In this document: piece by piece, positions 13,907-27,905 of the stretch
How the letters are laid out: the number at the start of each line of letters is the position of its first letter
Position numbering within the stretch: position 1 is the first letter of the stretch
Assembly: GCA_041740115.1 (NCBI GenBank)
Contig: JBGSMO010000487.1
Coordinates: 7,953 to 71,952 of the forward strand
DNA from: Pirellulales bacterium
Lineage (GTDB): Bacteria; Planctomycetota; Planctomycetia; Pirellulales; Lacipirellulaceae
Direction: 5' to 3'
DNA length: 64,000 bases
Notes under the pieces: generated by a model
What the model saw: only the letters and a program-made list of their open reading frames with translations
Databases searched by the model: none
Told to the model about the DNA's origin: nothing
Translations under genes and position numbers: made by a program

Positions 13907-14835
13907 GTTTCCGGACTGGAGGCCGGCAATGGGGGCGCTGCGGGAAGCTGGCGGAACGTCGACGATTTGTAGACCTGTTGCGGCGGCGTCACGACGCCGC
14001 AGCTCATGATGAATTGTAACGCCTGCTCCATCGTAATGTTCAGGTCAATGGTTTCGCTCCGTTTTACGGTGCAGGTGAAGCCCGTAAAGGGCATCGGCGA
14101 GGTCGGGATCAGCACGGCGAGCACCGGTTCGTTGGCCGCGCAAGCGAGGTCCAGCAAGCTCTCGCCGGTGACGAACGCGATTTGCCACACGCCCTTCCGA
14201 GGATACTCGACCGCCACAATGCGGGTGTAGGCGATCTCGGTTTCGGTGAACATGAAGTCAGTCACTTGCTTGACCGACGAATAGACGTTGCGGATGAGCG
14301 GCAGCCGCGTCACGCCCCGTTCGAATTGCGTCCAGAAGAAGCGGCCGACGCCGGCGGCCAGAAACTTTCCAAGCAGGTACAGCGTCAGCACGAAGACGCA
14401 AAGGAAGATCGGCACGACGATCCGCCGTTGCAGGTATTTGTTCTGGACGTAAATCCGGTAGACGCCGTCGGCAGTGGCAGGCATCGGGCCGCGGCCGACG
14501 ACTTCGGCGACTTCGTCGTAATCGGCGGCAGGGATGTACTGACCGTCGGCGGTTTGTCGGTAGGCGACCCCTTCGATCAGGGCTCGACCTTTCACTGGTT
14601 GATCGGGCGGGACAAGAGCGGCCGGGATAATGCTCTTTTCGTGATAGTCGACCAGCAGCGTCCGCGCGCCATTCTCCAGCGGCACGAGCAGGTAGTCGGC
14701 GATCGTGTTCCAGACCCACAGCAGGATGACGATCGTCAGCAGTGGCGGGAGCAAGATACCCAAGCCGCGGACGATTGCGCGACGAAAGGGGTCGAGCGCA
14801 CTTCCGGTTTTCGTCGTTGGCTGGGGGGAGGACAT
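13903..14835 (-). CDS. DUF502 family membrane protein
   Basis: RGLGILLPPLLT, RLPLIRNVYSSVKQ, VAVEYPRKG and IPTSPMPFTGF motifs. Confidence 0.85.
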   Translation of the reverse strand: MSSPQPTTKTGSALDPFRRAIVRGLGILLPPLLTIVILLWVWNTIADYLLVPLENGARTLLVDYHEKSIIPAALVPPDQPVKGRALIEGVAYRQTADGQYIPAADYDEVAEVVGRGPMPATADGVYRIYVQNKYLQRRIVVPIFLCVFVLTLYLLGKFLAAGVGRFFWTQFERGVTRLPLIRNVYSSVKQVTDFMFTETEIAYTRIVAVEYPRKGVWQIAFVTGESLLDLACAANEPVLAVLIPTSPMPFTGFTCTVKRSETIDLNITMEQALQFIMSCGVVTPPQQVYKSSTFRQLPAAPPLPASSPET

Positions 14836-14897: not shown

Positions 14898-15049
14898 TTA
14901 GCCGTTGGCGGGTGTGCGGGCGAGGACCAGCACGGTGACGTCGGCGGCGCCGGCGCGGCGCAGGACGCGGGCGGCTTCGCTGCAGGTAGCGCCGGTCGTC
15001 AGAATATCATCGACGATCAGCACCCGGGCGGCCGCTAAATGATAGGACG
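14898..15049 (-). pseudogene. comF: comF 3' fragment (PRTase core), separated from its 5' part by the integrated element
   Basis: Manual translation SYHLAAARVLIVDDILTTGATCSEAARVLRRAGAADVTVLVLARTPANG*. VLIVDDILTTGAT is the PRPP-binding loop. An in-frame TAG lies 3 codons upstream inside the element, so the fragment has no start codon. Confidence 0.95.
15035..15049. repeat. Left attachment core (15-bp direct repeat)
   Basis: CTAAATGATAGGACG, identical to 27275-27289. Confidence 0.96.
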
Positions 15050-15093
15050 GGGAACGCTAAACGGTAGTGACTTTTGGAGGTTTTGGACCGGAC

Positions 15094-15112
15094 GCAACGC
15101 GCAAAGCAACGC
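15094..15112 (+). repeat. Putative integrase arm-type site (left)
   Basis: GCAACGCGCAAAGCAACGC, identical to 27138-27156; 45 bp inside the left core. Confidence 0.8.
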
Positions 15113-15251
15113 GCGCCGATTATCCGGCCGGTTTTGCTAAGATACGACACTGCTGGGCTCGGGGACTAATTACCCCCACAGGCCCCGGCCGTCAGCGGAC
15201 CACACCCCGCGGCGGCCGGGACCGGCTCGGCTCTTTGAAAGGTGTGGAAGC

Positions 15252-15875
15252 ATGGACGAATGGCAACCCCCGAAGTTGGGCGCAACGCTCCGAATGCTCG
15301 TCAAAATGCGAGTTCTCTGCCACCGGGAGTTTGATGCGCCGCCATACGCTGGATGCAGCATTTCCGAAGCAGAGTATGAGGCCGCCGGCAGTGACGGCTC
15401 AACCGAGGTCGGCTACGTCTCTTGGCGGACTCGCTGCGAGCGATACTATCGGATTCCGCGAGGGAAGTTCGATGACTTTGAGCGGTTGAGTTCGACGTTG
15501 TGGGGCATTAACAATGCGATATTGTCCATCAAGGCCGCCAAGTTATTGATTCAGCTTGGAGAGCCCGTAAGCGTCATCGCGACAGAGTGCGAGAGCATAG
15601 CGACTTCATGCTTCGTTGTTGGGTCGCAACTACGCCGGTACGCAGACGTTTCAACTCACCGCGAAAAGTCGACGCCCGTTCGCGTGTCGCAATTCGCAGA
15701 CATAGCGGTGGCCTCGAAAGCACGTGATGAAATCAAGCGGCAATTAAGATCGCGGTTGCCCTGGACTGCAGCAACGGACCGCGCCGCGACGACGCTTCGG
15801 AGCCATGGTATCCAAACAACTGGAAAAACCCTTAGGAACAACTTCGCCGACTTGAGGCCCGAAAAGGCGAAGTGA
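15252..15875 (+). CDS. Hypothetical protein (element)
   Basis: 207-aa ORF with no recognised motif; first gene of the element. Confidence 0.65.
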   Translation: MDEWQPPKLGATLRMLVKMRVLCHREFDAPPYAGCSISEAEYEAAGSDGSTEVGYVSWRTRCERYYRIPRGKFDDFERLSSTLWGINNAILSIKAAKLLIQLGEPVSVIATECESIATSCFVVGSQLRRYADVSTHREKSTPVRVSQFADIAVASKARDEIKRQLRSRLPWTAATDRAATTLRSHGIQTTGKTLRNNFADLRPEKAK

Positions 15876-16010
15876 AACGCGGAAACAACCCCGTAGCTTC
15901 CGAAAACTTGGCGGGAAATTACCCCGTCATTTCCGGGAATCATTGGTGACGCCCCTATCGTGATTGCAGTGCCGCACACAGCGGCAAGCACACGACAAAG
16001 GGAGCGACCA

Positions 16011-16214
16011 ATGGTAGCCGCAGCAAACTCACAGCAGCCTCTGCAAGTCAGCGAGCGTGAAGCCGCTCGCATTCTCGGCGTCTCACCGAAGACGCTCTTC
16101 AATCGTCGCCAAGCCGGCAAGATCGGCTTTGTTCGCGACGACGGCCGGATTCTCTACCGGCTCGACGAACTGCAGCGCTATTCCAAGGCCCGGGAAGTCC
16201 CGGCCGTTCTCTAA
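16011..16214 (+). CDS. Excisionase/AlpA-like winged-helix DNA-binding protein
   Basis: LQVSEREAARILGVSPKTLFNRRQAGKIGFVRDDGRILYRLDELQRY fits the Xis/MerR-like HTH pattern; SD AAAGGGAG before ATG 16011. Confidence 0.85.
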   Translation: MVAAANSQQPLQVSEREAARILGVSPKTLFNRRQAGKIGFVRDDGRILYRLDELQRYSKAREVPAVL

Positions 16215-16308
16215 CCCCCACCACCGCCTGGCTGTCCGCGCATTAAAACGCCCGGACGCACCGAGGGCTCAATTTCGGTGGCCGGGCAAAATCGAAAGGA
16301 CTATCCCC

Positions 16309-16554
16309 ATGATAGGGACCATTCAGCTGCAAACCAAGGCTTGCATGGTTTGCTTTCGTGCTGACTCCGTCGCCGGCAAAACTGTCAGCGGCAAGCAGGC
16401 TTGCTCTCAGTGTTGGAGGAACGACAGAGCTGCTGCAAAGCGTCGCGGCAAGATGCGGCCGGGCGTTTGTGCGACGGTCAACGCTTCACTGCCTTCGGTG
16501 AAGCATGTCGCCTCTCTCCCCGGTCAACTCGGCCTCTTCGGGGAGGGCGAGTAA
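16309..16554 (+). CDS. Small CxxC-CxxC (possible zinc-binding) protein
   Basis: SD GAAAGGA before ATG 16309; CMVC...CSQC; stop overlaps the next start (TAATG). Confidence 0.65.
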   Translation: MIGTIQLQTKACMVCFRADSVAGKTVSGKQACSQCWRNDRAAAKRRGKMRPGVCATVNASLPSVKHVASLPGQLGLFGEGE

Positions 16555-16934
16555 TGCAACACCAACCGCCCCCTGCCGTCCCAGTAATGCTCACCGGCCT
16601 ACTCCACGAGAACGGCCAACTCTTCACCGTGTTCGCCGCCGGCGACTCAGAGCGGATCATCGAAGCCGAGCTCTACGACATTCTGCCATTCGATAACTTC
16701 CGTCAGCACGTCCACGAGCGACTCGACTTGCGAGTCGTCTACCGACGCGGCCGTTGGTTCGCCGACGTGATTGAAGCCGCTGAGCGTGGCGGAATCGCAA
16801 TCGAGGTGGACGACCTCACCCGTTGCATCTGGTTGAACGATCGCCAGTTGAGTTACGCCGAAGCTGGATACGCTGCCGAGATTATGCTTTCGCCGGTTGT
16901 CCGTCTAGCCGGCAAGCTGGGGGTGGCCGGATGA
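16554..16934 (+). CDS. Hypothetical protein (element)
   Basis: 126 aa; translationally coupled on both sides (TAATG and ATGA overlaps). Confidence 0.7.
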   Translation: MQHQPPPAVPVMLTGLLHENGQLFTVFAAGDSERIIEAELYDILPFDNFRQHVHERLDLRVVYRRGRWFADVIEAAERGGIAIEVDDLTRCIWLNDRQLSYAEAGYAAEIMLSPVVRLAGKLGVAG

Positions 16935-18688
16935 TTGCAGCCCCGCATGGAATCGCGATTCTCGACGCCCTGGAAGGCGTGAAGTCGAACGGCCAAGACT
17001 CGTGGATGGCTCAATGCCCTTGCCACGAAGATTCAACCGCCTCGCTATCGATCACCCGCGAAGGCGACAAGACGCTCGTTTACTGCCATGCCGGTTGCGA
17101 CACTCGCGACGTGGTCGCCGCTTCTGGTTTGACGATGGCAGACCTGGGGCCGCGTAACGCCAACGGTTCAGCTCCGCACGTCGATAAGGTTTACGACTAC
17201 CGCGACGCTGACGGCTCGCTGATATCTCAAGTCGTGAAGATGCTGCCGAAGGATTTCCGCCAACGTCGGGCGGACGGCACGCCGAGCGTTAAGGGCTGCA
17301 AGGTCGTACCGTACCGGCTCCCTGAAATCGTCCGGGCTGATCCCGCGGCGCCCGTGTTCGTCGTCGAAGGCGAAAAGGATTGCGACAACCTGGCGAAGCT
17401 CGGCATCATCGCAACGTGCAACGCCGGCGGCGCTGGGAAGTGGCGGGCGGTTCACGCTGAGCACCTGAAGGGCCGGCACGTCGTCGTGCTTCCCGACAAC
17501 GATGATCCTGGCCGCAAGCACGCCGAGCAAGTTGCTGCGACGCTCGCGGGCATCGCCCGCAGCGTGAAGACGGTCGAGCTCCCCGGCTTGCCCGAAAAGG
17601 GGGACGTTTCGGATTGGCTCGCTGCAGGTGGGACCGCGGCGAAGCTACTGGAGTTGGCTGCGGAATCGTCCGACGAAGCTGCGGCGTTCCCTAAGTTCAC
17701 GCTCGGCGAACTGACTGAGAAGTTCCGCACGCTCAGCCCACCGGTGATTCACGGTTTCATCCGCGAGGGTGAGACTGCCAACTTCATAGCGAATCCGAAG
17801 ACCGGCAAGTCGTGGACGATGTACGGCTTGGCCATCAACGTCGTCACTGGGTCGGATTGGCTGGGATTGTTCCCAGTCTCTCAAGGTCGCGTGCTGCTGA
17901 TCGACAACGAACTTCACCCCGAGACGCTTGCTCACCGCATCCCGGCTGTTGGCAATGCTCTAGCTAGGCCGTTCGAGGACTATCGCGACGGCATCGACAC
18001 ATGGTGCCTTCGCGGCAATCTTCGCAGCCTGCAACAGTTGCTTGTCGAGTTCCGCAAGTCGGTCGAGCCGCGTCAGTACAAGCTGATCATCTTCGACGCC
18101 AAATATCGCTTCGCGGCCGAAGGCACGAGCGAGAACGACAACGCGGCGGAGACGGCTGTTTACAACCTACTCGACCAGATCGCGGCAGAGACGCGATCAG
18201 CCCTGATCGTCGTTCATCACGCGAGTAAGGGCGGCCAATCTGACAAACGCGTTACCGACGTTGGCGCGGGAGCCGGTGCTCAGAGCCGGGCGGCTGATTG
18301 CCACATGGTGCTGCGCGAGCATGAGGACGAGGGTATCGCCGTGCTCGACGCTGCGGTGCGATCGTTCCCGCCGGTGGCGCCAGTGGCTTTGCGTTGGTCA
18401 TTCCCGATCTGGATTCCCGACGAGTTCGCGGACGCTGCCAAGCTCAAGGGCAAGCAAACCCGCAATGAGGAACGGACGGCGGAGCGAGACAAAGAGGGCA
18501 TCGACAAGATCATCGCCGTGCTGATCACCGGGCCCGCGACAGCCAGCGTCATTAGGCAGGGGACCGGAATCAGCAAAGACCGGTGCGACCGCCTACTTAA
18601 CAAGCTCACTGCCGACGACCAGATCCGCGTGGAGATGGTGAAGGTGAAGGGCAATGAATGCCGCGAATACCACGTTGTCGATGGTTGA
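16931..18688 (+). CDS. Primase-helicase (Zn finger + TOPRIM + RepA/AAA_25-type helicase)
   Basis: CPCHED...CHAGC zinc site; VFVVEGEKD and VVVLPDNDDPG TOPRIM motifs; Walker A ANPKTGKS; Walker B LIIFD; C-terminal wHTH-like segment. Confidence 0.92.
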   Translation: MIAAPHGIAILDALEGVKSNGQDSWMAQCPCHEDSTASLSITREGDKTLVYCHAGCDTRDVVAASGLTMADLGPRNANGSAPHVDKVYDYRDADGSLISQVVKMLPKDFRQRRADGTPSVKGCKVVPYRLPEIVRADPAAPVFVVEGEKDCDNLAKLGIIATCNAGGAGKWRAVHAEHLKGRHVVVLPDNDDPGRKHAEQVAATLAGIARSVKTVELPGLPEKGDVSDWLAAGGTAAKLLELAAESSDEAAAFPKFTLGELTEKFRTLSPPVIHGFIREGETANFIANPKTGKSWTMYGLAINVVTGSDWLGLFPVSQGRVLLIDNELHPETLAHRIPAVGNALARPFEDYRDGIDTWCLRGNLRSLQQLLVEFRKSVEPRQYKLIIFDAKYRFAAEGTSENDNAAETAVYNLLDQIAAETRSALIVVHHASKGGQSDKRVTDVGAGAGAQSRAADCHMVLREHEDEGIAVLDAAVRSFPPVAPVALRWSFPIWIPDEFADAAKLKGKQTRNEERTAERDKEGIDKIIAVLITGPATASVIRQGTGISKDRCDRLLNKLTADDQIRVEMVKVKGNECREYHVVDG

Positions 18689-18830
18689 CCGACAACGTAC
18701 CCGACTACCCGACAACGGGCTGACGGGTGGGGTGGTGGCTCCCTAAAGGGGGAGCCGACAACCCTACCACGTCAGCCTACAGGAACGACAACGATGAATT
18801 CAACAATCGACAACGTACCCGACCGACAAC
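18674..18830. promoter_or_regulatory. Putative replication origin (iterons + hairpin)
   Basis: CGACAAC at 18690, 18710, 18756, 18786, 18808 and 18824, inverted at 18674; the 16-mer CGACAACGTACCCGAC twice; GGCTCCC/GGGAGCC hairpin at 18737-18756. Confidence 0.6.
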
Positions 18831-19009
18831 GCCAGACCACCATCATCTTCGACCAAACAGTCGCCGACCGCATCGAAAGCTTGCTGGCTCGCGTCGAAGG
18901 CGTCCGCCGCGGCGCCACGATCGACCGGCCAACCCGATTCAACCGCGAAGGCGAGCGCCACGCCCGTCGCGTAGCCCAAGCCGACCAATCCCGCGGGACT
19001 TCCCGCTAA
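18794..19009 (+). CDS. Hypothetical protein (element)
   Basis: 71-aa ORF with SD AGGA; its 5' end overlaps the iterons. Confidence 0.5.
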   Translation: MNSTIDNVPDRQRQTTIIFDQTVADRIESLLARVEGVRRGATIDRPTRFNREGERHARRVAQADQSRGTSR

Positions 19010-19034
19010 CCCCGTTTCCTGAAAGGAAAAACCG

Positions 19035-19475
19035 ATGGTAGTTTCCAACCACCCCGACCTCCGCGCCGCCATGTACGCCGCCCACATGGGCACTGGCGGA
19101 ACTCGCGACGAACTGCTCGCCCTAGCTCGACGTCACGGCCAGACGCCGGAGATCTTCGACGCCGACTACGCCGAGATGGGGCGCCGGATTGCGTTGCACA
19201 ACGCCTATTGGTCGTCGCCCGAAGGTTTGGCCATCCGCGACGCTCGGCAGAAGCTCGCTGAAGCCGCTCAGGCCGTCGACGCCGCTGTCGCAGAGTTCGC
19301 GAGCGACGCCCGGGTCGATCACCTGCGGAAGCTGCAGGCCGACGCCACGGCGGAAGTGAACAAGCTGCAGAATGCCAACAGCGAGCAGTTCCAAGCGTTC
19401 TCCAAGGCGATGAAGGCCACGGCCCACCCGGGCGACGCCAACTATCTCGACCCGGCCAACGTGCTCATTCACTAA
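19035..19475 (+). CDS. Hypothetical helical protein (element)
   Basis: 146 aa; strong SD GAAAGGAAA; phage-like codon style. Confidence 0.75.
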   Translation: MVVSNHPDLRAAMYAAHMGTGGTRDELLALARRHGQTPEIFDADYAEMGRRIALHNAYWSSPEGLAIRDARQKLAEAAQAVDAAVAEFASDARVDHLRKLQADATAEVNKLQNANSEQFQAFSKAMKATAHPGDANYLDPANVLIH

Positions 19476-19494
19476 TTCGATGAAAGGAAACACA

Positions 19495-20100
19495 ATGCAA
19501 ATCGTAAAAACCCCGCCGCTCCCGGCGCCCAAGGTTATCCAGCGGCCGTCAGACCGGATCTCAGCCGCCGACCGAGAAGAGATCTACGGCATCATCTGCC
19601 CGGCCGTCGAAGCCGGTAAGCCGCTCACGAAGTCGGAAACGGCCCGCGTCAACGCGATCGTCTCCGGCAAGCCCGTCGGCGTCTTCGTGGCGGAGGCTCA
19701 TCGGTTCGCCCGTGCCGTCGCCGCTGGCGAGGACGTCGCAAACTCGTCGCCCGATCTGCTCCGACTGCTGCAGGATGGACCGGCCGCCGCCCTGATGAAC
19801 GCCGCGACCGCCCGCAAGGCTCTGGCCGACGCGTTCGAGAAGACCGGCTACTTCAAGCGGGTGGCTGAGTTGAAAGAAGCGTGCCGGACTGCACTCGAAG
19901 CCTTCCAGGTCGCCGAGGCGGATGAAGATACCAGCATGCGGAAGATTCGGCGGCTTCAATTGGAGCACGAGCAATCGATTCAGCGGCTCAGTGACTTCTC
20001 GAACACCGCGAACGCCGAATTCACGCTGTTCCGCCGCGAGATGAAGAAGACCGCCGATCTCTCCAAGAACGAACTGCTCTGGCAGAACTTCCTGATTTAA
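19495..20100 (+). CDS. Hypothetical coiled-coil protein (element)
   Basis: 201 aa from ATG 19495 after TGAAAGGAAACAC. Confidence 0.75.
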   Translation: MQIVKTPPLPAPKVIQRPSDRISAADREEIYGIICPAVEAGKPLTKSETARVNAIVSGKPVGVFVAEAHRFARAVAAGEDVANSSPDLLRLLQDGPAAALMNAATARKALADAFEKTGYFKRVAELKEACRTALEAFQVAEADEDTSMRKIRRLQLEHEQSIQRLSDFSNTANAEFTLFRREMKKTADLSKNELLWQNFLI

Positions 20101-20109
20101 GGAGCGACC

Positions 20110-20448
20110 GTGGCAGCCTACGTTCTCAACCCGAAGCATCCCAATTATCGATTTGTACGCACGGTGACGATCGCCGGCCGTCAACCTCGCATCGTCATTT
20201 TCAAAGATGGCGCCGAGGTGGAACTCGACCCAAAGGAGGTGCGATTCCTCGCGGAAGAGATTGCCGCCAATTGGATCGGACTGGCCGGAGTCAAGTTTCC
20301 CAAACCGGAGAAGCCCATTCCCGCGCGGCTGGACCCATCCGAACTGGAAGACCGAGACCCTGAGACGTTTGAATTTGTTCGACCTGAAGACCGACCCCGT
20401 TGGTGGCAAGAGCGGCGTGCAATTTTCCGCGCCGTCAACGGTCGCTGA
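20110..20448 (+). CDS. Hypothetical protein (element)
   Basis: 112 aa; SD TAAGGAG before GTG. Confidence 0.7.
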   Translation: MAAYVLNPKHPNYRFVRTVTIAGRQPRIVIFKDGAEVELDPKEVRFLAEEIAANWIGLAGVKFPKPEKPIPARLDPSELEDRDPETFEFVRPEDRPRWWQERRAIFRAVNGR

Positions 20449-20474
20449 CCCTTTTACCCCTGAAGGAGTTTCCC

Positions 20475-20891
20475 ATGTCCCACTTTGACGATTTCGATGA
20501 CGACGACGACGACTACGAGATCGAGGCTAGTTCCAACCTTCGCCAATTTAGCAGCGGCACCTTGGCAGGCCGACTGGTCGAGAAGATCACGGCACTTCAG
20601 CAGGAGCAGCCGCTTACCCGTGCATTTACAACCCGACCAAGTCACAGGGCTATGCAAACCCAAACCCCTAAGCGGAGCGCCGAGCATCCGATCGTCACGA
20701 AGTATAAGGCCAATCACGGCAGCTATGCCGTCGCAGGCGTCACGCTGTGCGAATTCGCGTTGGACCACTTCGTCAATGACGACGACGCCGGAGAGCCCAG
20801 CGCCGCCCTGATCGCTGAGATTGAAGCTGAGAGCGCAGTTCTTCAGGCGGCTTGGATGAACGGTGAGATCACCAACCCATTTGATGCGTAA
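20475..20891 (+). CDS. Hypothetical acidic protein (element)
   Basis: 138 aa from ATG 20475 after GAAGGAG; begins with a poly-Asp tract (MSHFDDFDDDDDDY). Confidence 0.7.
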   Translation: MSHFDDFDDDDDDYEIEASSNLRQFSSGTLAGRLVEKITALQQEQPLTRAFTTRPSHRAMQTQTPKRSAEHPIVTKYKANHGSYAVAGVTLCEFALDHFVNDDDAGEPSAALIAEIEAESAVLQAAWMNGEITNPFDA

Positions 20892-21088
20892 GCGAGAGCC
20901 GGGCGACAAGCGGGGCCTTAATCCTGAATTTGCACCCCGTGGCCGAGTCGATCGTTGCGGTTCTCTTGACCGCAGCGTGTGTAACAAAGCCCGTCGCCTG
21001 TCCAGTCGGCTACCAGTCGCCCCCTTCGTTCCTTGTGTGGAAGCGGGGCGGCTGGGGCTGATTGATGGCAAAGGCCACCCCGCCGGTG

Positions 21089-21124
21089 GGGTCCTTCCGG
21101 CCTTCGTCAGACCACCCTCGGGTG
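21089..21124 (+). promoter_or_regulatory. Putative cos-like packaging site
   Basis: GGGTCCTTCCGG (21089-21100; lambda cosQ is GGGTCCT, followed by TTCCGG), then the 12-bp dyad CACCC-TC-GGGTG (21113-21124), about 75-100 bp upstream of the Nu1-like gene. Confidence 0.45.
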
Positions 21125-21196
21125 AAGCATCGAACGCCTTTTACACGTCAGGAGTTGAGAGTTGACCCCTAATAATAGCACCCTGGAGGCCCGCAA

Positions 21197-21685
21197 ATGG
21201 CCGCTGTAGCCCTCGAACCCCAGACTCTGAGCAAACACATCTGCGCCGATCTCCGCGATATGGGGCATTGGACGCGCGCCGTGCCGGAGATGTTCCGGGG
21301 CCTGATCGCGATGCATCGGGAAGGCGGCGAAACCGTCGTGAAGACGCTACCGGAAGTTGCCGCCGCGTTCAACATGGCTCCGCAGTCAGTCAAAGGCGAC
21401 TGGCGTGATGGCGGCATGCCTGGCCGTCCTGGGCGCTGGGATCTCGCCGAGATTTTGTGTTGGCGAATCGAGCGTGACGGGCGTGCTCGCGGGGCGACGG
21501 TCGATACGACGCCCGTTGAATCGCTGGTCGACAAGGCTTTGGAGCTACTCAGCGAGCAATACGGAATCACGCACGTCATCGCCGGCGGCGAGCGTCTCGC
21601 CCAAGCATGGGCCGACACGTTGGCCGAGGCGGAAGCGGGAGAGAAGAAACGGGCCCCTAGTGCTCGGAAGCGAATCACCAACTAG
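21197..21685 (+). CDS. Terminase small subunit (lambda Nu1-like) DNA-binding protein
   Basis: PEVAAAFNMAPQSVKGDWRDGGMP...WDLAEILCWRIERD aligns by eye with Nu1 KQLADIFGASIRTIQNWQEQGMP...YDSAAVIKWYAERD. Confidence 0.65.
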   Translation: MAAVALEPQTLSKHICADLRDMGHWTRAVPEMFRGLIAMHREGGETVVKTLPEVAAAFNMAPQSVKGDWRDGGMPGRPGRWDLAEILCWRIERDGRARGATVDTTPVESLVDKALELLSEQYGITHVIAGGERLAQAWADTLAEAEAGEKKRAPSARKRITN

Positions 21686-21710
21686 CCCGACGGGCTGAAA
21701 GGAAACACGA

Positions 21711-23267
21711 ATGAGCGCGAAGTTTGAAATCGGCGGTTCAGCCAGCGGCGCCGTCAAGGCGGTTGAGGAACTCAACAAAGCGTTGAACAAGACCGGCAAA
21801 GAAGCCGAGGGCGCGATCACGCCGACTAAGAAGGTGCAAGAGGCCGCGGCCCGATTGGCCCAACAAGCCGATCCGCAAGAGAAGTACAACGAACGGATGC
21901 GAAAGCTGGTCGAAGCAGTCAAGGGCGGGGGCCTGGAAATCTCCAAGGCGGAAGTGTTGGCCAAACGCTACGGCACGGCGCTTGATAAAGCCGGCGACTC
22001 CGGCGACAACGCGTTCGGTTCCGGGATGCTCGGCAAGATCATGGCGATGGGCGGCGGCATCACGGCGACGCTCGGTCCGCTCGCCCTGATGAAAAAAGGG
22101 TTCGACGATATCTCCGACTCGATCGAGAAAGCCAAGAACGCCAGCGCGGAAGCTCGCCGCGGCATGGGCTCACTTCGACAGTTGGCCAACTCCGACGCCG
22201 AGTTCCAGGGATTGAAGAGTAAGGCGGAAGCTTTGTTCGCCAATGGCTCAGTGCAGACGCTCGACCAGGGAGCGCAAGCCGTCTTCTCGTTGGCGTCTGC
22301 CGGTCAGCTCGACGACAAGAGTTTCAGCATGTTCGCGGGCCTGGCTCAAAAGGGCGTCGTCGATCCGGGGATGTTAGCCAAAGCAGTTCGCCAGTACCAA
22401 TCGGGGTTCGGCGCCGCCGAGACGGGCGGGGCTGGGCAGATCATCTCCAAGGCGTTCGCGGCGTCGGCCTACTCACCGGCGTCGGTCGAAGGGTTGCTCG
22501 GCGCCAGCCCGCAGATGGCGGCAGCCGCGTCGTCGTTGGGGATCAGCGACGAAGAATCGCTCGCGTCGCTGGCGGTGTTGTCGTCGAGCGTCGGGGAGAA
22601 CGTCGCGGCGACTCAGATTCGTGCGTTCCTTAGTTCGACGGCGAACATGGAGGGGACCGAGGGCATGAGCATTGCCGAGCGCGTGAAGATGGTCGCCGGC
22701 AAGAACCTGGATTACGCCAGCCTGAAGAAAACTCTGGGGACCGATGAAGCGACGACGGGCTTCGGCCTGCTGTCCAAGAATATGCAGGAGATTCAACGGG
22801 CGAATCTGGATATTCAAAAGGCGAATTCAGACACAGGCGCGGTAAGTCGTCGCCTGGGTTTCACCGACGCCGAGTCCGATGCAGCCCTGTCGTCGATGAT
22901 GATCGAGAACCAAGGCATTCTCCAAGACCGTCGCGTGGCGGCTTATGAGGAGTTGCGCGACGGCATCTTCGAACGGCAGCGGCAAGGGTTCCGCGAAAGC
23001 GCCAAGAACGGACTCCCGCAGCGATTGAACGCGTCGTTCGACCTGGGGCTAAGCCATACCCAAGAGTTCCTCAACGGCTACCTGATGAGTCCCGAGACGT
23101 TCGTCAACGTCAACGAGTCAGCGGTCGGCAGCGGCGGGATGAGCGACCAGCAACAGGCCGTTCTCGAATCGCTGAATCGTTCGGCAAAGGCGGCTGAGCA
23201 GACGGCGGAAGAGATCAAGCGGCTCTCCGGTCAAAACCGCAGCAAGGTCACGACGAGGCAAGAATGA
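21711..23267 (+). CDS. Phage tail tape-measure-like protein (518 aa)
   Basis: Ala/Gly/Ser-rich helical protein with the TMP-type core ASSLGISDEESLASLAVLSS...AATQIRAFL, an N-terminal PQEKYNERMRKL segment and a C-terminal coiled coil. Confidence 0.72.
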   Translation: MSAKFEIGGSASGAVKAVEELNKALNKTGKEAEGAITPTKKVQEAAARLAQQADPQEKYNERMRKLVEAVKGGGLEISKAEVLAKRYGTALDKAGDSGDNAFGSGMLGKIMAMGGGITATLGPLALMKKGFDDISDSIEKAKNASAEARRGMGSLRQLANSDAEFQGLKSKAEALFANGSVQTLDQGAQAVFSLASAGQLDDKSFSMFAGLAQKGVVDPGMLAKAVRQYQSGFGAAETGGAGQIISKAFAASAYSPASVEGLLGASPQMAAAASSLGISDEESLASLAVLSSSVGENVAATQIRAFLSSTANMEGTEGMSIAERVKMVAGKNLDYASLKKTLGTDEATTGFGLLSKNMQEIQRANLDIQKANSDTGAVSRRLGFTDAESDAALSSMMIENQGILQDRRVAAYEELRDGIFERQRQGFRESAKNGLPQRLNASFDLGLSHTQEFLNGYLMSPETFVNVNESAVGSGGMSDQQQAVLESLNRSAKAAEQTAEEIKRLSGQNRSKVTTRQE

Positions 23268-23584
23268 GCACCATCAGCGCCGACGCACGCTATGCCGAAC
23301 TGCTCACGCACGTCGACTTTCCCGACTGGTGGATTTTCGTCGTCGGCGCCACGCACGTCATCGAACGATGGCACGGCGTCAGCCTGCCGGTAACGACCGT
23401 CGGGCTGATCGAAGTAAAGAAGCAAGGCGTCGACTTCAAGGAACCGAAGTGGGCGTTGCTGCTCTGGGAACTTGGCGCGGAGGCGGACTTCATTGAGAGG
23501 CTACAGCGTGCAACCGCCGAACTGGGAACCGACCGAAGCGGAGATAGCGGCACAGTGTGCGGAGATCCGCCGCGGGTGGAGTGA
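23264..23584 (+). CDS. Hypothetical protein (element)
   Basis: 106 aa; ATGA overlap with the tape-measure-like gene. Confidence 0.55.
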   Translation: MSTISADARYAELLTHVDFPDWWIFVVGATHVIERWHGVSLPVTTVGLIEVKKQGVDFKEPKWALLLWELGAEADFIERLQRATAELGTDRSGDSGTVCGDPPRVE

Positions 23585-23672
23585 GGCGGAGCTGCGGCGG
23601 CGCTCGGCGTGGATGGTCTGCGAGCCGGTGACGGCGCCGGTGGCCGAAGAATCGCTCTTTGATAACTCGTGA
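23508..23672 (+). CDS. Small protein with a PTEAEIAAQCAEIRRGW motif
   Basis: GTG at 23508 with SD GAGAGG; 54 aa; overlaps the end of the previous ORF in another frame. Confidence 0.5.
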   Translation: MQPPNWEPTEAEIAAQCAEIRRGWSEAELRRRSAWMVCEPVTAPVAEESLFDNS

Positions 23673-23786
23673 AGATAAAACCGCCTCCGCACGCGCCGCG
23701 TCGTGCGTTGCGAGGGGCGGGCGTGACCATCGAGCCGCGTTTCGCTGCGATGCGTGAGGCGGGCGCTGAGGGGCTGAGAAGCGAGA

Positions 23787-23816
23787 TTGACAAAACGGGC
23801 GGCTGCGGAGCAAAAT
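23787..23816 (+). promoter_or_regulatory. Sigma-70-like promoter
   Basis: TTGACA-N18-CAAAAT upstream of the 24051/24443 gene pair. Confidence 0.5.
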
Positions 23817-23832
23817 AGCGGCGTCAAAGCAC

Positions 23833-23862
23833 GAACCTTCGGAAGTTAATTTCCGAAGGTTC
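23833..23862. repeat. Perfect 12-6-12 inverted repeat (operator or lox/dif-like recombination site)
   Basis: GAACCTTCGGAA-GTTAAT-TTCCGAAGGTTC. Confidence 0.85.
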
Positions 23863-24050
23863 AATCGCGGGCCTGAGAATCCGCGATACACGCAGTGAGT
23901 TATGTCGAATGGTGAGAAACAAGAACGATCGGCAGAGAGGGTGCGCAGGAAGGCAACGACCTGCGGGCGGTCTCACCCGCCTGACAGCGCCACCTCTGCC
24001 GGTCGTTTTTCTTAGCCCGTGCCGTTCTGGCCGGGCGGAAGGATTCTCCC

Positions 24051-24446
24051 ATGGCCCTCGCACTCTACGCGGGCGACGACCTAGAAGTCTGTCACGACAC
24101 GCGGACTTGGCTGCGGCAAGGTAAATCAGCCATCGAAGGCGGCTATCTAATCGAAGGCGCCGCGTTGCTCCAAAGAGCGGTTCGCGAGTTCCTGCAAGCC
24201 GACTGCGACTACTGGGGCGTTCCCCGGCATCGCACGCTGATCGGCATGGCGAAGTCACTTTATCGAGCCGAGCAGGTCACGCCCGATTCTTATGCGGTAC
24301 TGTCCGGCATCATCTCGACGTGCAACCGCGTCGTGCGTTGCGAGCCGAGGCGTTGCGAAGATGAAAGCCACTTGAAGGCATGCCTGCTAGCCATGCACTC
24401 ATTCTGCGACGGGACCGCCTATCTCGACGAAAGGAGCCAAGCATGA
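24051..24446 (+). CDS. Hypothetical helical protein, possibly HEPN/DUF4145-like
   Basis: 131 aa; GAALLQRAVREFL...TLIGMAKSLYRAEQVT...VLSGIISTCNRVVRC resembles the HEPN helical layout but lacks Rx4-6H; coupled to the recombinase by an ATGA overlap. Confidence 0.55.
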   Translation: MALALYAGDDLEVCHDTRTWLRQGKSAIEGGYLIEGAALLQRAVREFLQADCDYWGVPRHRTLIGMAKSLYRAEQVTPDSYAVLSGIISTCNRVVRCEPRRCEDESHLKACLLAMHSFCDGTAYLDERSQA

Positions 24447-25639
24447 GCACGACCGACAACAAGGCCGACTGGCCCCTACTCCGCATCGTCAACGAGATCA
24501 TGAAGCCGACCGGGCGATGGAAGCCGGCGGTCATTCGCGGTTATCGAGTTGTAGTACGACGCTACGAACGGTTCCGCGGCGGCGAGCAGACGGCCGGCGA
24601 AGTGACCGTCCGTCTGCTGGAGAAGTTCAAGGAACTGATGATTGCCGAGGGCGTTAAGACAAAGGCCGCGGCGACGAAGGCGAGCTACATCGGAACCATC
24701 GTCCGCCAAGCCGACCCCGATCTGTTGCCGAAGCGCAACCTTGGCGAGTACAGCAAGGCCGAGCAAGGCGACCTGCTCTACATCATGGAAAACGAATACT
24801 TCCCGGCGAAGTCGAAGATTGCGAGCGAGACGACGGAGCGGCAGTACAAGTACACGGCGACCCGTTTCTCGAAATTCTTGGGGCGTCGCGCGACGCTCGC
24901 CGACTTAACGGACCAAAGCCTCGGTAAATGGATGCGACAAATGCGAAAGGATGGTTTAGCGATGCCAACGATCAACGGCTACGTCACGAAGCTACGGGCG
25001 TTTTGGAACTGGTGTGCGAAGAAGCGGATGGTCGAAGAGTTCCCGACGATCGAAGATTTCCCCGAGCCGATGACGATTCCCAAGGCGTATAGCGAGGAAG
25101 AGTTTCGGTCCCTGATCGCCGCTACAAAGCTCATGGAAGGTCACGTGGGCGACGTGCCGGCCGGGCAATGGTGGTATGCGTTGCATCTGGTGGCGTTCGA
25201 CACGGGGGAGCGATGTTCGGCGCTGTTGCATCTTGAGTGGACCCACTACGACGCGGGAGACGCGACGCTCGCCGCTCCGGCTGAGATCCGCAAAGGGGGA
25301 CGCAAGCCGATGCTCTATCGCCTGAAGCCGGCGACCGTCGCCACGTTGGCGACCATGCGAGCGACGGCCAGCGGCAAGAAGATATTCTTCTGGGCGCATG
25401 ACGCAACGACGTTCTACAACCACTACAAAAAGCTGCTGGAGTTGGCGGGGCTGCCCTACGTTCCGCACAAGAGCGGGCTGCAAAAGGTGCGTCGGACGTT
25501 CGCCAGCCATATCGAAGCGGCTGGCGGCAACTCGACGCAGGCCCTTAGTCACACGTCGCGGCGAGTGACCGAGAAGTCGTACATCGATCCAAGAATCGCC
25601 AAGGAACCGCCGCACAACGACGTGCTGTTCGACCTGTAG
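24443..25639 (+). CDS. Tyrosine recombinase 1
   Basis: Catalytic motifs FDTGERCSAL (R), KGGRK, LQKVRRT (Q at the HxxR His position), LSHT...TEKSY (H, Y). Confidence 0.92.
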   Translation: MSTTDNKADWPLLRIVNEIMKPTGRWKPAVIRGYRVVVRRYERFRGGEQTAGEVTVRLLEKFKELMIAEGVKTKAAATKASYIGTIVRQADPDLLPKRNLGEYSKAEQGDLLYIMENEYFPAKSKIASETTERQYKYTATRFSKFLGRRATLADLTDQSLGKWMRQMRKDGLAMPTINGYVTKLRAFWNWCAKKRMVEEFPTIEDFPEPMTIPKAYSEEEFRSLIAATKLMEGHVGDVPAGQWWYALHLVAFDTGERCSALLHLEWTHYDAGDATLAAPAEIRKGGRKPMLYRLKPATVATLATMRATASGKKIFFWAHDATTFYNHYKKLLELAGLPYVPHKSGLQKVRRTFASHIEAAGGNSTQALSHTSRRVTEKSYIDPRIAKEPPHNDVLFDL

Positions 25640-26000
25640 CCCCACCGCCGCGGGCAGGCGGCGGTTTTCAAGAAGATCCGGGCGGGCCAAGTTGCTGAGG
25701 GTCGACACAACAACGCCTTGGCGCCGCCCGGAAGCGACCAATGGAGTATTGTTTTGGCCCTGCGCCGTGCCTGAAAAATCTGGCGCGATTGCGCCACGAT
25801 GCCGGTTGCTTGCCGGTGTGAGCGCGGATTGTATGAAAAGCCGTGACGGCGACCCCGCTGGCTAGCAAATCAGCGAAGGCCGCCGCCACAGACCGTTTGA
25901 TCGTTAATAGGCGGCGAGCCCTGGAACGAGTTCCCCAGAGCCCGCCGCCGACAGGAGCTAACCAGCAACTCTACCACCTTTTTTGAGCATTGGAGAAAAA

Positions 26001-27224
26001 ATGGCATCGTTATCAACTTACCAAGACGGCAAGAAAAAAGGCCGGCATCGCGTCCTGTTCACCGACCCCACCGGCAAGCGGCAGACGATCTACCTTGATC
26101 GCATTCCCAAGAAAACGGCCGAGGGCGTTCAACGCGCCATCACCGAGCTTGAGCGATCGGCCCGCTACGGTCACTCGGCGGCAGACTTCGCGTTGGCATG
26201 GCTATCGACCGCCGGCGATGAGATCCGCGAACGACTGACGAAGTTCGGGCTCGCGTCGGCTCGCATGGTCGAAGCGCCCGAGGCGGTAACTCTCGGCACG
26301 CTGGTCGACCTGTACCAGCTTCGCCCCGAGTGGCAGCAGCTGAAGCCCAAGACGATCAAGAACAAGTTGCGCCACTTCAAGCTGGCCCTGGCGTTCTACG
26401 GCGCCGACAAGCCGGTCGAGTCGATCACCAAGGCCGACGCCAAGGCGTTCTACGCGATGCTGCAGCTTCCCGAGGCCAAGGGAGGGCACGACTTCGCCGT
26501 CGCCACGGCCAACCAGACGGCCTCGACGCTGTTCGCTCTGGTCAGCTTCGCCATCGACGCCGAGCTGGTCGACCGGAACGTGTTCAAGGTTCTGCCGCGG
26601 AAGGCCCGAAAGGGGAACAACGTAAACGTCAGCGAGGCTGTCAGCCTTGCAGTGCTCGATTCGCTGCAGACCACCGAGGACAAGCTGCTGTTCGCCCTGG
26701 GGCGCTGGGGCGGGCTACGGATGCCCTCTGAGGGGACGCAGCTACGCTGGCAGGACGTTGATTGGGAAAGGGAGCGTTTCTACACTCGCAGCCCTAAGAC
26801 CGAGCGCCACGAGGGCAGGGAAGGGCGTTGGGTGCCGATCTACCCGCCGTTGGCGCCGCTGTTCCGCGAGATGTTCGAGAAAGCCGCCGACGGCGCCGTC
26901 TACGTTCTCCCGAACTATTGTCATGCGATCTACTCCAAGCCGACGCAGACGCTCAAACAAGCGATCAAGCACGCGGGCGTCGAGCCATGGCCAAGAGCGT
27001 GGCACAGTTGCCGAGCGACGCGGCAGACGGAACTGGCGGCCGATTTTCCGGCTCATGTCGTCGCGAGTTGGATGGGAAACACCGTCGCGGTCGCCGACGC
27101 TCACTACCTGATGGTGCGTGAACTCGACTTTGCAAAAGCAACGCGCAAAGCAACGCAGCACACGCCCGCAACGACGGATAACGAGAAGAAAACGGCTGGC
27201 GTGAACCCTGCAAATCCTCGATAA
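26001..27224 (+). CDS. Tyrosine recombinase 2, likely the integrase for the comF site
   Basis: N-terminal arm-binding-like region (GRHRVLFTDPTGKRQTIYL); RWGGLRMPSE (R), SPKTE (K), WHSCRAT (HxxR), WMGNT...AHY (Y); ends 50 bp from the right att core. Confidence 0.94.
   Translation: MASLSTYQDGKKKGRHRVLFTDPTGKRQTIYLDRIPKKTAEGVQRAITELERSARYGHSAADFALAWLSTAGDEIRERLTKFGLASARMVEAPEAVTLGTLVDLYQLRPEWQQLKPKTIKNKLRHFKLALAFYGADKPVESITKADAKAFYAMLQLPEAKGGHDFAVATANQTASTLFALVSFAIDAELVDRNVFKVLPRKARKGNNVNVSEAVSLAVLDSLQTTEDKLLFALGRWGGLRMPSEGTQLRWQDVDWERERFYTRSPKTERHEGREGRWVPIYPPLAPLFREMFEKAADGAVYVLPNYCHAIYSKPTQTLKQAIKHAGVEPWPRAWHSCRATRQTELAADFPAHVVASWMGNTVAVADAHYLMVRELDFAKATRKATQHTPATTDNEKKTAGVNPANPR
27138..27156 (+). 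repeat. Putative integrase arm-type site (right), inside the integrase CDS
   Basis: GCAACGCGCAAAGCAACGC, identical to 15094-15112; translated as part of KATRKATQ. Confidence 0.8.
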
Positions 27225-27263
27225 TTGCAGGCTGTTGCAGGTGGTTGCCGTTCTATTCCGGAC

Positions 27264-27905
27264 CTAAAGAGCGTCTAAATGATAGGACGCACCTACAGCC
27301 ATTTCTCCCGCCAAATTGCGAAATCGCGCGGGGCGTGATAACCCGACCTGGGGCGGCACATCCCGCACAAGCCGCAGCATCTCGCCCGCGCAGGGGACGT
27401 TCAGCTTTTCGGCGAGGCGGCGAGCGATCAGTTGCGGTGCATTCGCGCCTCGTTGCCATCGGCGCCACCGGTGCATCGGGACGGCGGTGACGACGTCGAT
27501 CTGTAACTCCAGTAGCTGGTTGCTGAGCCGCTGCCATGCCAGTTCGGCGAGCGCGTGCGTCACGACCCCTTGGCGATCGGCCTTCGTGCGCATCACGAGT
27601 TGCCGTAACAGCCCTTCGTAGCTGCCGAGCGCGATCGCCCGCTGGAAGCGAAGCTTGTCGCCGCGGCAGTGGTTGCAGGCGAGGTCGACGCCATTCGTCG
27701 AGGGGACCGGCGCAGCGCAGCGGGGGCAGACTGGCCAGTCGATGAATTCGAGGCGCTCTTCACACTCTCGGCAGATGGGTGACTCGCGCTGCTCTTCGCC
27801 GAGGTCGCCGTGGCAGGCGATGCATTTGGCGGGGAAGAGGAGATCGAGGCCGGCGCCTACGGCGTGTCGCCACCATCGAGTTCGTTGAGTTGGCGGTGTT
27901 GGCAT
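27264..27905 (-). pseudogene. comF: comF 5' fragment (double zinc ribbon + N-part of PRTase), truncated by the element
   Basis: LDLLFPAKCIAC...CREC...CPRC...CNHC, TAVPMHRWRRWQRGAN and QVGLSRPARFRNL; ends ASYHL+DAL* at the att core and lacks the DD..TTGAT motif found at 14898-15035. Confidence 0.95.
27275..27289. repeat. Right attachment core (15-bp direct repeat)
   Basis: CTAAATGATAGGACG, identical to 15035-15049. Confidence 0.96.

Follow-up and report, generated by a model that had tools for sequence, protein, structure and literature searches.

The 64,000-nt stretch of Pirellulales bacterium DNA analyzed here (contig JBGSMO010000487.1 of assembly GCA_041740115.1, positions 7,953 to 71,952; referred to below as the window) contains an island of 12,240 bp in the planctomycete gene comF. 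The subject of this analysis is a region of the island in which a noncoding site resembling the cos site of phage lambda (21078-21188) is followed directly by the gene for a 162-aa protein related to Nu1, the small terminase (TerS) of lambda. This region is probably the packaging module of a 12.24-kb cos-type integrative phage satellite, which would represent a new family working like Gram-negative phage-inducible chromosomal islands (PICIs). Since the island carries a cos-like site and a shortened TerS gene and has no genes for the large terminase (TerL), portal, or capsid, it most likely rides in helper-phage capsids. The original prediction for this sequence was that the element hijacks a cos-type helper terminase; comparative support for it comes from the conserved site, the Nu1-like protein, the lack of TerL, portal, and capsid genes, and a loss of the protein's C terminus as in the Rpp proteins of PICIs.

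The principle is already known from PICI Rpp proteins and from the P4/P2 pair. Two features are new as far as we found, both read from sequence comparisons: a truncated protein that appears to come from a planctomycete phage TerS, and the lambda cosQ heptamer, spacing included, reappearing alongside gpA-type terminases in a phylum distant from the hosts of lambda. A census of satellites reports them mostly from Proteobacteria and Firmicutes, with some from Actinobacteria, and never mentions Planctomycetes (PMC10085698), and a full-text literature search for phage satellites together with Planctomycetota found nothing. If the satellite reading is true, a cos-type family in Planctomycetota would extend the satellite lifestyle to the Planctomycetes-Verrucomicrobia-Chlamydiae (PVC) group and add another instance, apparently independent of the first, in which a satellite has cut down a small terminase to make a packaging redirector. 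A broader proposal, on which we are nearly evenly divided and lean to caution, is that the cosQ heptamer, a spacing of ∼2 helical turns, and a CG-flanked stagger form an ancient recognition grammar of gpA terminases that reaches from enterobacterial lambda to Planctomycetota. On this proposal, the phylum would host diverse unrecognized cos satellites that exploit the grammar, some with independently arisen Rpp-like truncated TerS proteins, some with full-length TerS, and some with a tape-measure-like gene that might alter the helper tail. To our knowledge, the recognizer of cosQ is still not settled, and a deeply diverged set of natural cosQ-cosN variants, each matched with its own terminase, would allow cosQ recognition to be approached by comparison. 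The site model can also serve in searches of PVC metagenomes for cos ends, helper phages, and satellites.

The cos-like site in the window and in relatives

The motif, the dyad, the gap between them, and the downstream gene of the original prediction are all present at the places noted. The motif GGGTCCTTCCGG, which contains GGGTCCT, lies at 21089-21100, and the dyad CACCCTCGGGTG (5-bp arms, TC center, 10/12 positions palindromic) lies at 21113-21124 on the + strand, 17 nt after GGGTCCT. The prediction had equated GGGTCCT with lambda cosQ, and the heptamer in the lambda sequence is identical. By itself the heptamer is not significant, with 2 copies in the window versus 6.7 expected. Because the bare 7-mer is not enriched, the case rests on its context, a 111-nt site with cosQ-like, cosN-like, and cosB-like blocks. 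Model R1, a sequence-only model derived from eight related sites, none of them from the window, gave a single hit across both strands of the window, at 21078-21188 on the + strand (41.6 bits; E = 3.6e-12).

The blocks of this site are all on the + strand. The cosQ-like block CCGGTGGGGTCCTT (21083-21096) holds GGGTCCT at 21089-21095, and CCGGT[CG]GGGTCCT is invariant in 10 sites. The cosN-like element CCTCG^GGTGAAGCAT^CGAAC (21116-21135) corresponds to (C/G)TTCG-N9-10-YYGARC, which is found 23 to 26 nt after GGGTCCT in all sites. In the window, GGGTCCT lies 25 nt before CCTCG^ and the pattern CG^N10^CG is present at 21119-21132; the predicted top-strand nick falls at 21120/21121, with a predicted cohesive end of 9 to 10 nt. 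On the cosB side, block iii CCTTTTACACGTCAGG (21137-21152) consists of a T-run plus GCAC/GCGG...AAG and is possibly a bending site; TTTTTGC(G/A)..TAAG is kept exactly 20 nt from the nick column in both phages and islands. Block iv CCCCTAATAATAGCACC (21166-21182) includes CCCTAATAATA, which is common to the window and two related loci (L002 and L001) and unique within the window. By analogy with the lambda R3 site, block iv, at bp 46 to 62 from the predicted left end, is a candidate binding site for the winged-helix protein. Counted from this left end (21121), the start codon of the 162-aa open reading frame (ORF) is at bp 77, for a nick-to-start distance of ∼76 bp. Two further blocks, TGGCCGAGTCGAT (20940-20952) and GTGTAACAAAGCCCG (20979-20993), also occur upstream of a full-length TerS gene in L010 and would be near the right end of the packaged DNA if the cos model holds.

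Comparison with relatives changed one part of the original prediction. The GGGTCCT part of its motif-plus-dyad arrangement is conserved, but the dyad is not kept as a dyad: it overlaps the conserved nick-type (C/G)TTCG^, and relatives read GCGTTCGC or similar there. Symmetry near cosN does exist, and the conserved symmetric element is (C/G)TTCG-N9-10-CGAAC rather than the CACCC/GGGTG dyad. Judged from these alignments, the motif is part of a conserved, putative cos site of the lambda type.

Conservation upstream of homologues, on which the prediction had staked its motif, was found: the same site precedes Nu1-type terS genes both in phages (L136, L222, and L250) and at loci where TerL was not detected (L002, L138, L154, and the window). 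Its layout is CCGGT[CG]GGGTCCT, 23 to 26 nt, (C/G)TTCG, 9 to 10 nt, (C/T)(C/T)GA(A/G)C, the T-run, a C-run, and the terS start, with TTGC of the T-run exactly 20 nt from the TTCG column and the C-run accompanied by TAATAATA or ACAACAACA. These noncoding blocks are kept while the spacers diverge. The intergenic region of L002, for example, is otherwise unalignable and does not keep the dyad, but it retains CCGGCCGGTCGGGTCCTTAC and GATCCCTAATAATAACACC, each as far from the start codon as in the window. L136, on a 1.98-Mb contig, is the head module of a prophage and encodes TerS, gpA TerL, a protein of 74 aa, the portal, and a capsid protein resembling Mu gpT; its terS is preceded by CCGGTCGGGTCCT, 19 nt, GCGTTCGC, and then CGAACTTTTTTTGCGCATAAGG and TCATAATAATAATAGG. 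The L138/L139 island has the same site blocks, an AAA_25 helicase, a full-length 227-aa TerS-like protein (P0025), a serine recombinase, and no TerL. Upstream of the full-length TerS in L010 is CCCCCGGTCGGGTCCTTTCCGGCC, which contains the lambda 13-mer GGGTCCTTTCCGG; CTTCG|GGGCG follows 23 nt after the heptamer, where lambda has TTACG|GGGCGG. L010 and window positions 20940-20993 share GTGTAACAAAGCCCG and TGGC(C/T)GAGTCGAT.

Pattern scans recovered four new full sites with a TerS-like ORF directly 3′, in L154 (a Planctomycetota metagenome-assembled genome [MAG]), L219 (a Planctomycetaceae MAG), L222 (a Pirellulales MAG, with TerL), and L250 (an IMG/VR contig, with TerL). The scans also yielded a partial site cut by the contig end in L161 and re-found L138 as L178, and model R1 additionally recognizes partial sites in L011 and L161. 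A first DNA pattern (CGGTSGGGTCCTT..CCGGCC) was discarded, as none of its ∼120 loci had a TerS-like ORF and they were chance matches in GC-rich genomes; apart from the sites named above, most matches of the second and third patterns were due to chance or fell in unrelated coding sequence, among it a conserved verrucomicrobial gene.

Several of these loci have features of their own. Just upstream of the cos-like site in L136 (9733-9760) is a perfect 8-bp inverted repeat, CTTATTAG CACTAATAAG, which may act, at the right end of the genome, as a terminator or as a site bound by a protein. L138 (6337-20684; ENA k141_472381, also Ga0315338_1000113) is a second type of TerL-less island with the same cos-like site; it also encodes a 501-aa protein unrelated to the 518-aa protein of the window, an AAA_15/AAA_21 ATPase, and a large serine recombinase. 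In L154 (846-1586), the cos-like site is followed directly by a tandem pair of short TerS-like ORFs with winged helices (108 and 133 aa), and no TerL was found in the next 2 kb.

The site reproduces much of lambda cos. The lambda right end reads ...ACGGGTCCTTTCCGGTGATCCGACAGGTTACG|GGGCGGCGACCT (GGGCGGCGACCTCGCGG across cos), with GGGTCCT, 23 nt, TTACG^, 12 nt, and ^CG, and nu1 starting at bp 191. The 7-bp cosQ is highly conserved among lambda-like phages, as are the CG pairs flanking both nicks (PMC4669245). The window and L161 have GGGTCCTT(T)CCGG in common with lambda, and L010 has the full 13-mer. The heptamer precedes a CG^ nick motif by 23 to 26 nt (23 in lambda, about two helical turns), CG lies on both sides of the predicted stagger, and a TerS gene is directly downstream. 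The R3 sites of lambda, N15, and a PICI are at bp 48 to 65, and the start codon is at bp 89 in N15 and bp 102 in PICI-C (PMC9026076); the candidate block of the window, at bp 46 to 62, would put its TerS-binding position in a similar place (∼bp 46 to 65). Relatives of the window protein also use a gpA-family TerL and a lambda-type portal. Unlike lambda, the planctomycete site has a predicted stagger of 9 to 10 nt rather than 12, lacks the R3-I1-R2-R1 repeats, and has a nick-to-start distance of ∼76 bp rather than 190, and the window has a truncated TerS and no gpA gene.

Physical DNA ends are indicated by public assemblies of relatives. Three Logan contigs from three samples, L001 (SRR26424594; contig SRR26424594_73305), L011 (SRR31089950), and L137 (SRR22387802), all begin right after TTCG, 20 nt before TTGC, with the starts GGTTCAGGATCGAGCGTCGT|TTGCGT, GGTAAAAATCTGAACTTTTT|TTGCGG, and GTTGAGCAACGGCAGAAAAG|TTGCGG, respectively. 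L137 is a phage contig that encodes TerS, gpA TerL, portal, and capsid. The 10.9-kb contig L001, from an island, has a short TerS-like gene (53% identical), an integrase, ParB, and Prim-Pol/AAA_25, and no structural genes and no TerL were detected in it; its first 20 nt match window positions 21121-21140 at 14/20 positions. At its far end, L001 has homologues of genes located just upstream of the site in L002, so the contig looks like an element opened at the site. It is compatible with monomers or with multimers such as the concatemers of 3 to 4 units that, in the original prediction, could fill a helper-size head, since end reads that carry adapter would suffice by themselves to break a contig at a terminus. 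Independently, the SPAdes contig L161 (ERZ650311), whose upstream ORF resembles the gene preceding the site in L136, ends with ...GGGTCCTTCCGGGGCCTCCCCGGGGGGCGTTCGCGGTCTCCC followed by AGATCGGAAG (Illumina adapter), 9 nt past the TTCG column. Cohesive 5′ ends of 9 to 10 nt would be expected to produce this combination, with the left end at TTCG^ and the right end, once filled in, 9 nt further on, which suggests that these are real cohesive ends in the relatives.

The truncated small-terminase homologue

The 162-aa ORF extends from an ATG at 21197 to 21685 on the + strand, with GGAGG just upstream. Its homology emerges from profiles more than from the single sequence: the query alone matched PHROG 57 (terminase small subunit) weakly (E = 0.008), had no tblastn match among GenBank phages, and had four close relatives among 5.8 billion proteins. 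These four share the invariant MAPQSVKGDWRD..MPGR.G.WDL..IL.W...RD and, where full length, the same C terminus; a search of genome, viral, and metagenome contigs with the family alignment found no relatives. A profile of the five sequences (query plus four) retrieved 294 proteins among 1.8 billion representatives. Considering the best 83 of these 294, PHROG 57 was matched by 71/83 and PHROG 141 by 30/83, both of which are small terminase families, and a few also match Pfam Phage_Nu1 or DUF1441. A full-length relative (P0012) has a tblastn match to annotated TerS/Nu1 genes of E. coli phages.

The original prediction had aligned the central domain with the Nu1 winged helix, and hhalign of the five-sequence family agrees, pairing residues 53 to 100 with Nu1 residues 7 to 60 (E = 0.0019). 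Compared with solved structures, the profile of the query plus 83 relatives matched, always over the winged helix, the TerS chain of the RppC-TerS complex (6hn7_B; 8e-7), RppC (6hlk; 9e-6), the lambda Nu1 DNA-binding domain (1j9i; 5.5e-5), and also 7lw0. The RppC value (9.2e-6) comes from this broader profile, which is dominated by TerS sequences; the query alone reached E = 1.3. An assignment to a nonterminase MerR-like family, the outcome that was to overturn the prediction, did not result from these profile searches, which match the Nu1, TerS, and RppC structures.

Full-length relatives adjoin gpA-type TerL genes in L009 and L014 (GpA_ATPase) and in L136 and L137 (GpA_ATPase and GpA_nuclease, followed by a Phage_portal_2 portal and capsid genes), and they are also found with TerL in L222 and L250. 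In an alignment of the window family with full-length TerS proteins (A5), both groups have an N-terminal extension and a winged helix in common, as well as the helices that come next, and every member of the window family is without the last ∼50 to 70 residues of the full-length relatives (the ...LP..F.P.FP... region). The short family has its own conserved C terminus. The N-terminal extension of ∼45 residues is common to the local full-length TerS proteins, which suggests that the protein derives from a planctomycete phage TerS and not from an enterobacterial Rpp; its origin was probably independent. The domain layout is N-terminal helices, a winged helix-turn-helix (HTH) at ∼47 to 97, and a helical region at 107 to 150, which an AlphaFold2 model (predicted local distance difference test score of 82.8) renders as helices following the winged helix. 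From its alignments, the gene is assigned as encoding a Nu1-derived winged-helix protein without the C-terminal TerS domain.

What the missing domain implies bears on how the protein would act. In lambda Nu1, residues within the last ∼40 have been proposed to bind TerL, and a C terminus that is shorter in Rpp proteins has been used as an argument that they do not bind it (PMC9026076). With the same satellite and cos site, the 162-aa protein could instead be a self-sufficient replacement TerS that recruits the helper TerL directly, as a TerS of Staphylococcus aureus pathogenicity islands (SaPIs) does. Replacement is probably used in this group, given that the TerL-less islands L138/L139 carry a full-length TerS homologue (the 227-aa P0025), and the helices after the winged helix (107 to 150) are kept and align with the coiled-coil part of some full-length relatives (profile positions 125 to 143). 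However, the part that is lacking is the C-terminal domain of every aligned full-length relative, the place where the Nu1 TerL-binding residues were proposed (PMC9026076). We regard a self-sufficient replacement, the main mechanistic alternative, as unlikely for the window protein; direct recruitment of TerL is probably the role of the full-length versions in islands such as L138.

A shorter homologue outside the core family is encoded at the P0006 loci (L003 to L008). It has 145 aa and the same C-terminal helices and lies downstream of a Band_7 gene. At these loci, GCCGCCGGTGGGCGG is inside the called 5′ end of the ORF, and the true start may be the internal Met 42.

Proposed packaging mechanism and comparison with known satellites

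Under the preferred reading, a satellite whose protein redirects a helper terminase, the cycle would begin with the late phase of a helper, either resident or infecting, that has a Nu1/gpA-type terminase. Excision of the island would rely on its recombinases and HTH_17 protein, and replication on its primase-helicase. The 162-aa protein would bind the cosB-like block of the island (CCCTAATAATA, bp 46 to 62) and supply specificity, most likely as a hetero-oligomer with the helper TerS, as Rpp proteins do. The gpA-type TerL of the helper would then nick the cosN-like site and package island DNA into helper-made capsids, and cosQ would allow termination at the next cos. Because the island is missing what self-packaging would require, we read it as using the terminase (Nu1/gpA) and capsids of a planctomycete phage like L136, L222, or L250; cleavage at the window site, the partner proteins, and packaging of the island are, like this reading, inferred.

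The closest known counterpart is the cos-rpp module of PICIs (RppA of EcCICFT073 and RppC; PMC6739421 and PMC9026076). Both systems comprise an island of ∼12 kb with an integrase, an AlpA/Xis-like HTH protein, and a primase-helicase, and both place a helper-type cosQ and cosN directly upstream of a Nu1-like winged-helix protein of 135 to 160 aa that lacks the C-terminal (TerL-binding) part of TerS and starts ∼80 to 100 bp from the nick. They differ in the host phylum, here Planctomycetota, in the lack of a significant RppC match for the query alone, in the extra ∼45-residue N-terminal extension, and in the tape-measure-like gene of the planctomycete island. The PICI cosB is also reported to be unrelated to that of the helper, whereas here the cosB-side blocks are partly shared with phages.

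The P4/P2 pair likewise involves an integrative satellite of ∼11 to 12 kb with its own primase-helicase, a helper-like cos, and the use of the helper terminase (putative in the window). P4 is not known to encode a TerS-like protein, and its Sid protein makes small capsids; the window island, in contrast, encodes a TerS-like protein, and scans with Pfam and PHROG detected no Sid, Delta, or Psu homologue. SaPI-type PICIs employ a small-terminase homologue that redirects helper packaging, a role that the window protein would share, and the L138 island has a full-length TerS. Classical SaPIs use mostly pac/headful packaging and a complete TerS, whereas the window system is of the cos type and its protein is truncated.

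Several observations weigh against a satellite packaged at this site. The left nick motif of the window is CCTCG, not GTTCG. The query alone reached no family in Pfam or NCBIfam at E ≤ 0.1, including no Pfam terminase model. P0006 (L003), the closest short-form relative outside the core family, has no recognizable cos site and no model R1 match; its loci show a vague resemblance alone (GCCGGTGGG..CCAGCC). The contig-end evidence comes from relatives alone and covers one end of L001, and breaks at one column could result from assembly-graph branching at sequence shared by helper and satellite. In contig-level data from the one public run with the island, the cos region is continuous, uncut, and integrated, and no helper phage was identified in the window or in the sample. 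A tape-measure-like gene, which encodes the 518-aa protein, is odd in a satellite, and no other structural gene was recognized in the 12-kb island. Finally, Foldseek searches of the model against PDB and BFVD gave no significant match, the best being generic winged-helix proteins (BldC, Xis, and MerR-like); the fold search therefore cannot separate TerS from Xis or MerR.

This generic fold leaves room for another reading of the ORF, as a MerR/excisionase-type transcription factor or recombination directionality factor with the conserved blocks as the promoter-operator of a late-type operon. PHROG 57 matches the HTH_17 protein of the island as weakly as it does the query, and late promoters are commonly located just upstream of terS. 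Yet the profile relatives are overwhelmingly TerS proteins, the full-length ones adjoin gpA TerL, and neither a sigma-70-like promoter nor a terminator was detected in 20700-21400. The site further parallels lambda cos, both in its sequence and in how the elements are spaced, down to the cosQ heptamer and a CG-flanked stagger, and a promoter would not explain four independent contig ends at the predicted nick positions. A regulatory role is improbable and, like a dead prophage remnant (considered below), fits the data much less well than a cos-type satellite.

Island borders, gene content, and signs of mobility

The island is delimited by an exact 15-bp direct repeat, CTAAATGATAGGACG, at 15035-15049 (attL core) and 27275-27289 (attR core). 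In silico excision between the two copies rejoins comF in frame, yielding an uninterrupted 255-aa ComF ORF, and so sets the borders at 15035/27275 and the size at 12,240 bp, repeat to repeat. On the - strand, the C-terminal ComF fragment is at 14898-15023 (NCBIfam TIGR00201, comF model positions 155 to 190) and the N-terminal part is at 27264-27905 (PRK11595/TIGR00201, model positions 1 to 142). Taken up to the att repeats, the two comF pieces cover 14898-15034 and 27290-27905. No tRNA gene was found as an integration target; the target is comF.

All island genes between the comF pieces are on the + strand. The first is an HTH_17, excisionase/AlpA-like DNA-binding protein of 84 aa (15960-16214; Pfam HTH_17, 9.9e-8; PHROG 66, excisionase and transcriptional regulator, 3e-8), followed by a 621-aa primase-helicase with a zinc ribbon, Toprim, and AAA_25 (16823-18688; Pfam AAA_25, 8e-29, Toprim_2, and Zn_ribbon_DnaG; PHROG 239, DNA primase/helicase, 4.6e-37). 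Four ORFs with no assigned function (19035-20891) separate the primase-helicase from the 162-aa ORF (21197-21685), which profile searches, hhalign, and alignment identify as a putative truncated Nu1-type small-terminase-like protein. Downstream of it are a 518-aa protein related to PF10145 ("phage-related minor tail protein," tape-measure type; 21711-23267), whose homologues of 31 to 44% identity carry PF10145, and two tyrosine recombinases. The first recombinase (419 aa; 24380-25639) is XerA/XerD-like (Pfam Phage_int_SAM_5, 7.5e-11, and weak Phage_integrase), and the second (413 aa; 25983-27224; Phage_integrase, 5.6e-7) adjoins attR. No homologue of the planctomycete phage versions of TerL, portal, prohead protein, or capsid was found anywhere in the 64-kb window. 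The island falls in the 10- to 15-kb size range and combines integrase genes and att repeats with a regulator of the AlpA/Xis type and a replication module of its own, which is a PICI-like layout.

The island appears to have moved recently. In the one public run with the island, a second copy shows 0 differences over 14989-27326, and the comF flank of that copy (27327-27621) has 26 differences in ∼295 positions; its flanks are 5 to 9% diverged from the window. An identical island next to a diverged comF flank argues for recent mobility and points to recent transfer of the island between hosts diverged by several percent. Two alleles of 14098-14211 coexist in the same run, at depths of 16 and 4. 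A raised copy number of the island was considered and rejected: its depth of 19 matches that of the flank contigs of the major strain (16 to 18.7), flanks that differ in sequence from those of the window.

These data also bear on whether the island is a decayed prophage remnant with a relic cos site and short terS, for which the absence of TerL, portal, and capsid genes and a lone tape-measure-like gene as a possible leftover of a tail module would speak; this is very improbable, because the short proteins make up a conserved family whose C terminus is the same in at least 5 contigs, a short form is present in the compact 10.9-kb L001 with its own Prim-Pol/AAA_25, ParB, and integrase, the blocks are kept while spacers diverge, the att repeats are intact, and a 100%-identical copy resides in a host with 5 to 9% diverged flanks.

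Additional observations concern individual genes and repeats of the island. The ORF at 20400-20891, the last gene before the cos-like region, has a run of GAC/GAT codons at 20484-20520 that encodes the acidic stretch DDFDDDDDDYE. The 518-aa protein is glycine/alanine-rich, and one PF10145-type homologue is named in Posidoniimonas corsicana; no genomic loci were found for the 518-aa protein. On the contig of the P0002 homologue, a TerS-like gene is followed by a PF10145 gene, the same order as in the window. An exact 19-nt direct repeat, GCAACGCGCAAAGCAACGC, is located at 15094-15112, just inside attL, and at 27138-27156, in the 3′ end of the second integrase gene; the two copies may be arm-type recombinase binding sites. 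In the run with the second island copy, a further contig, at a depth of 22.5, aligns with 24081-25645 in patches only, leaving out the remainder; this suggests that the community includes a related element whose recombinase region differs.

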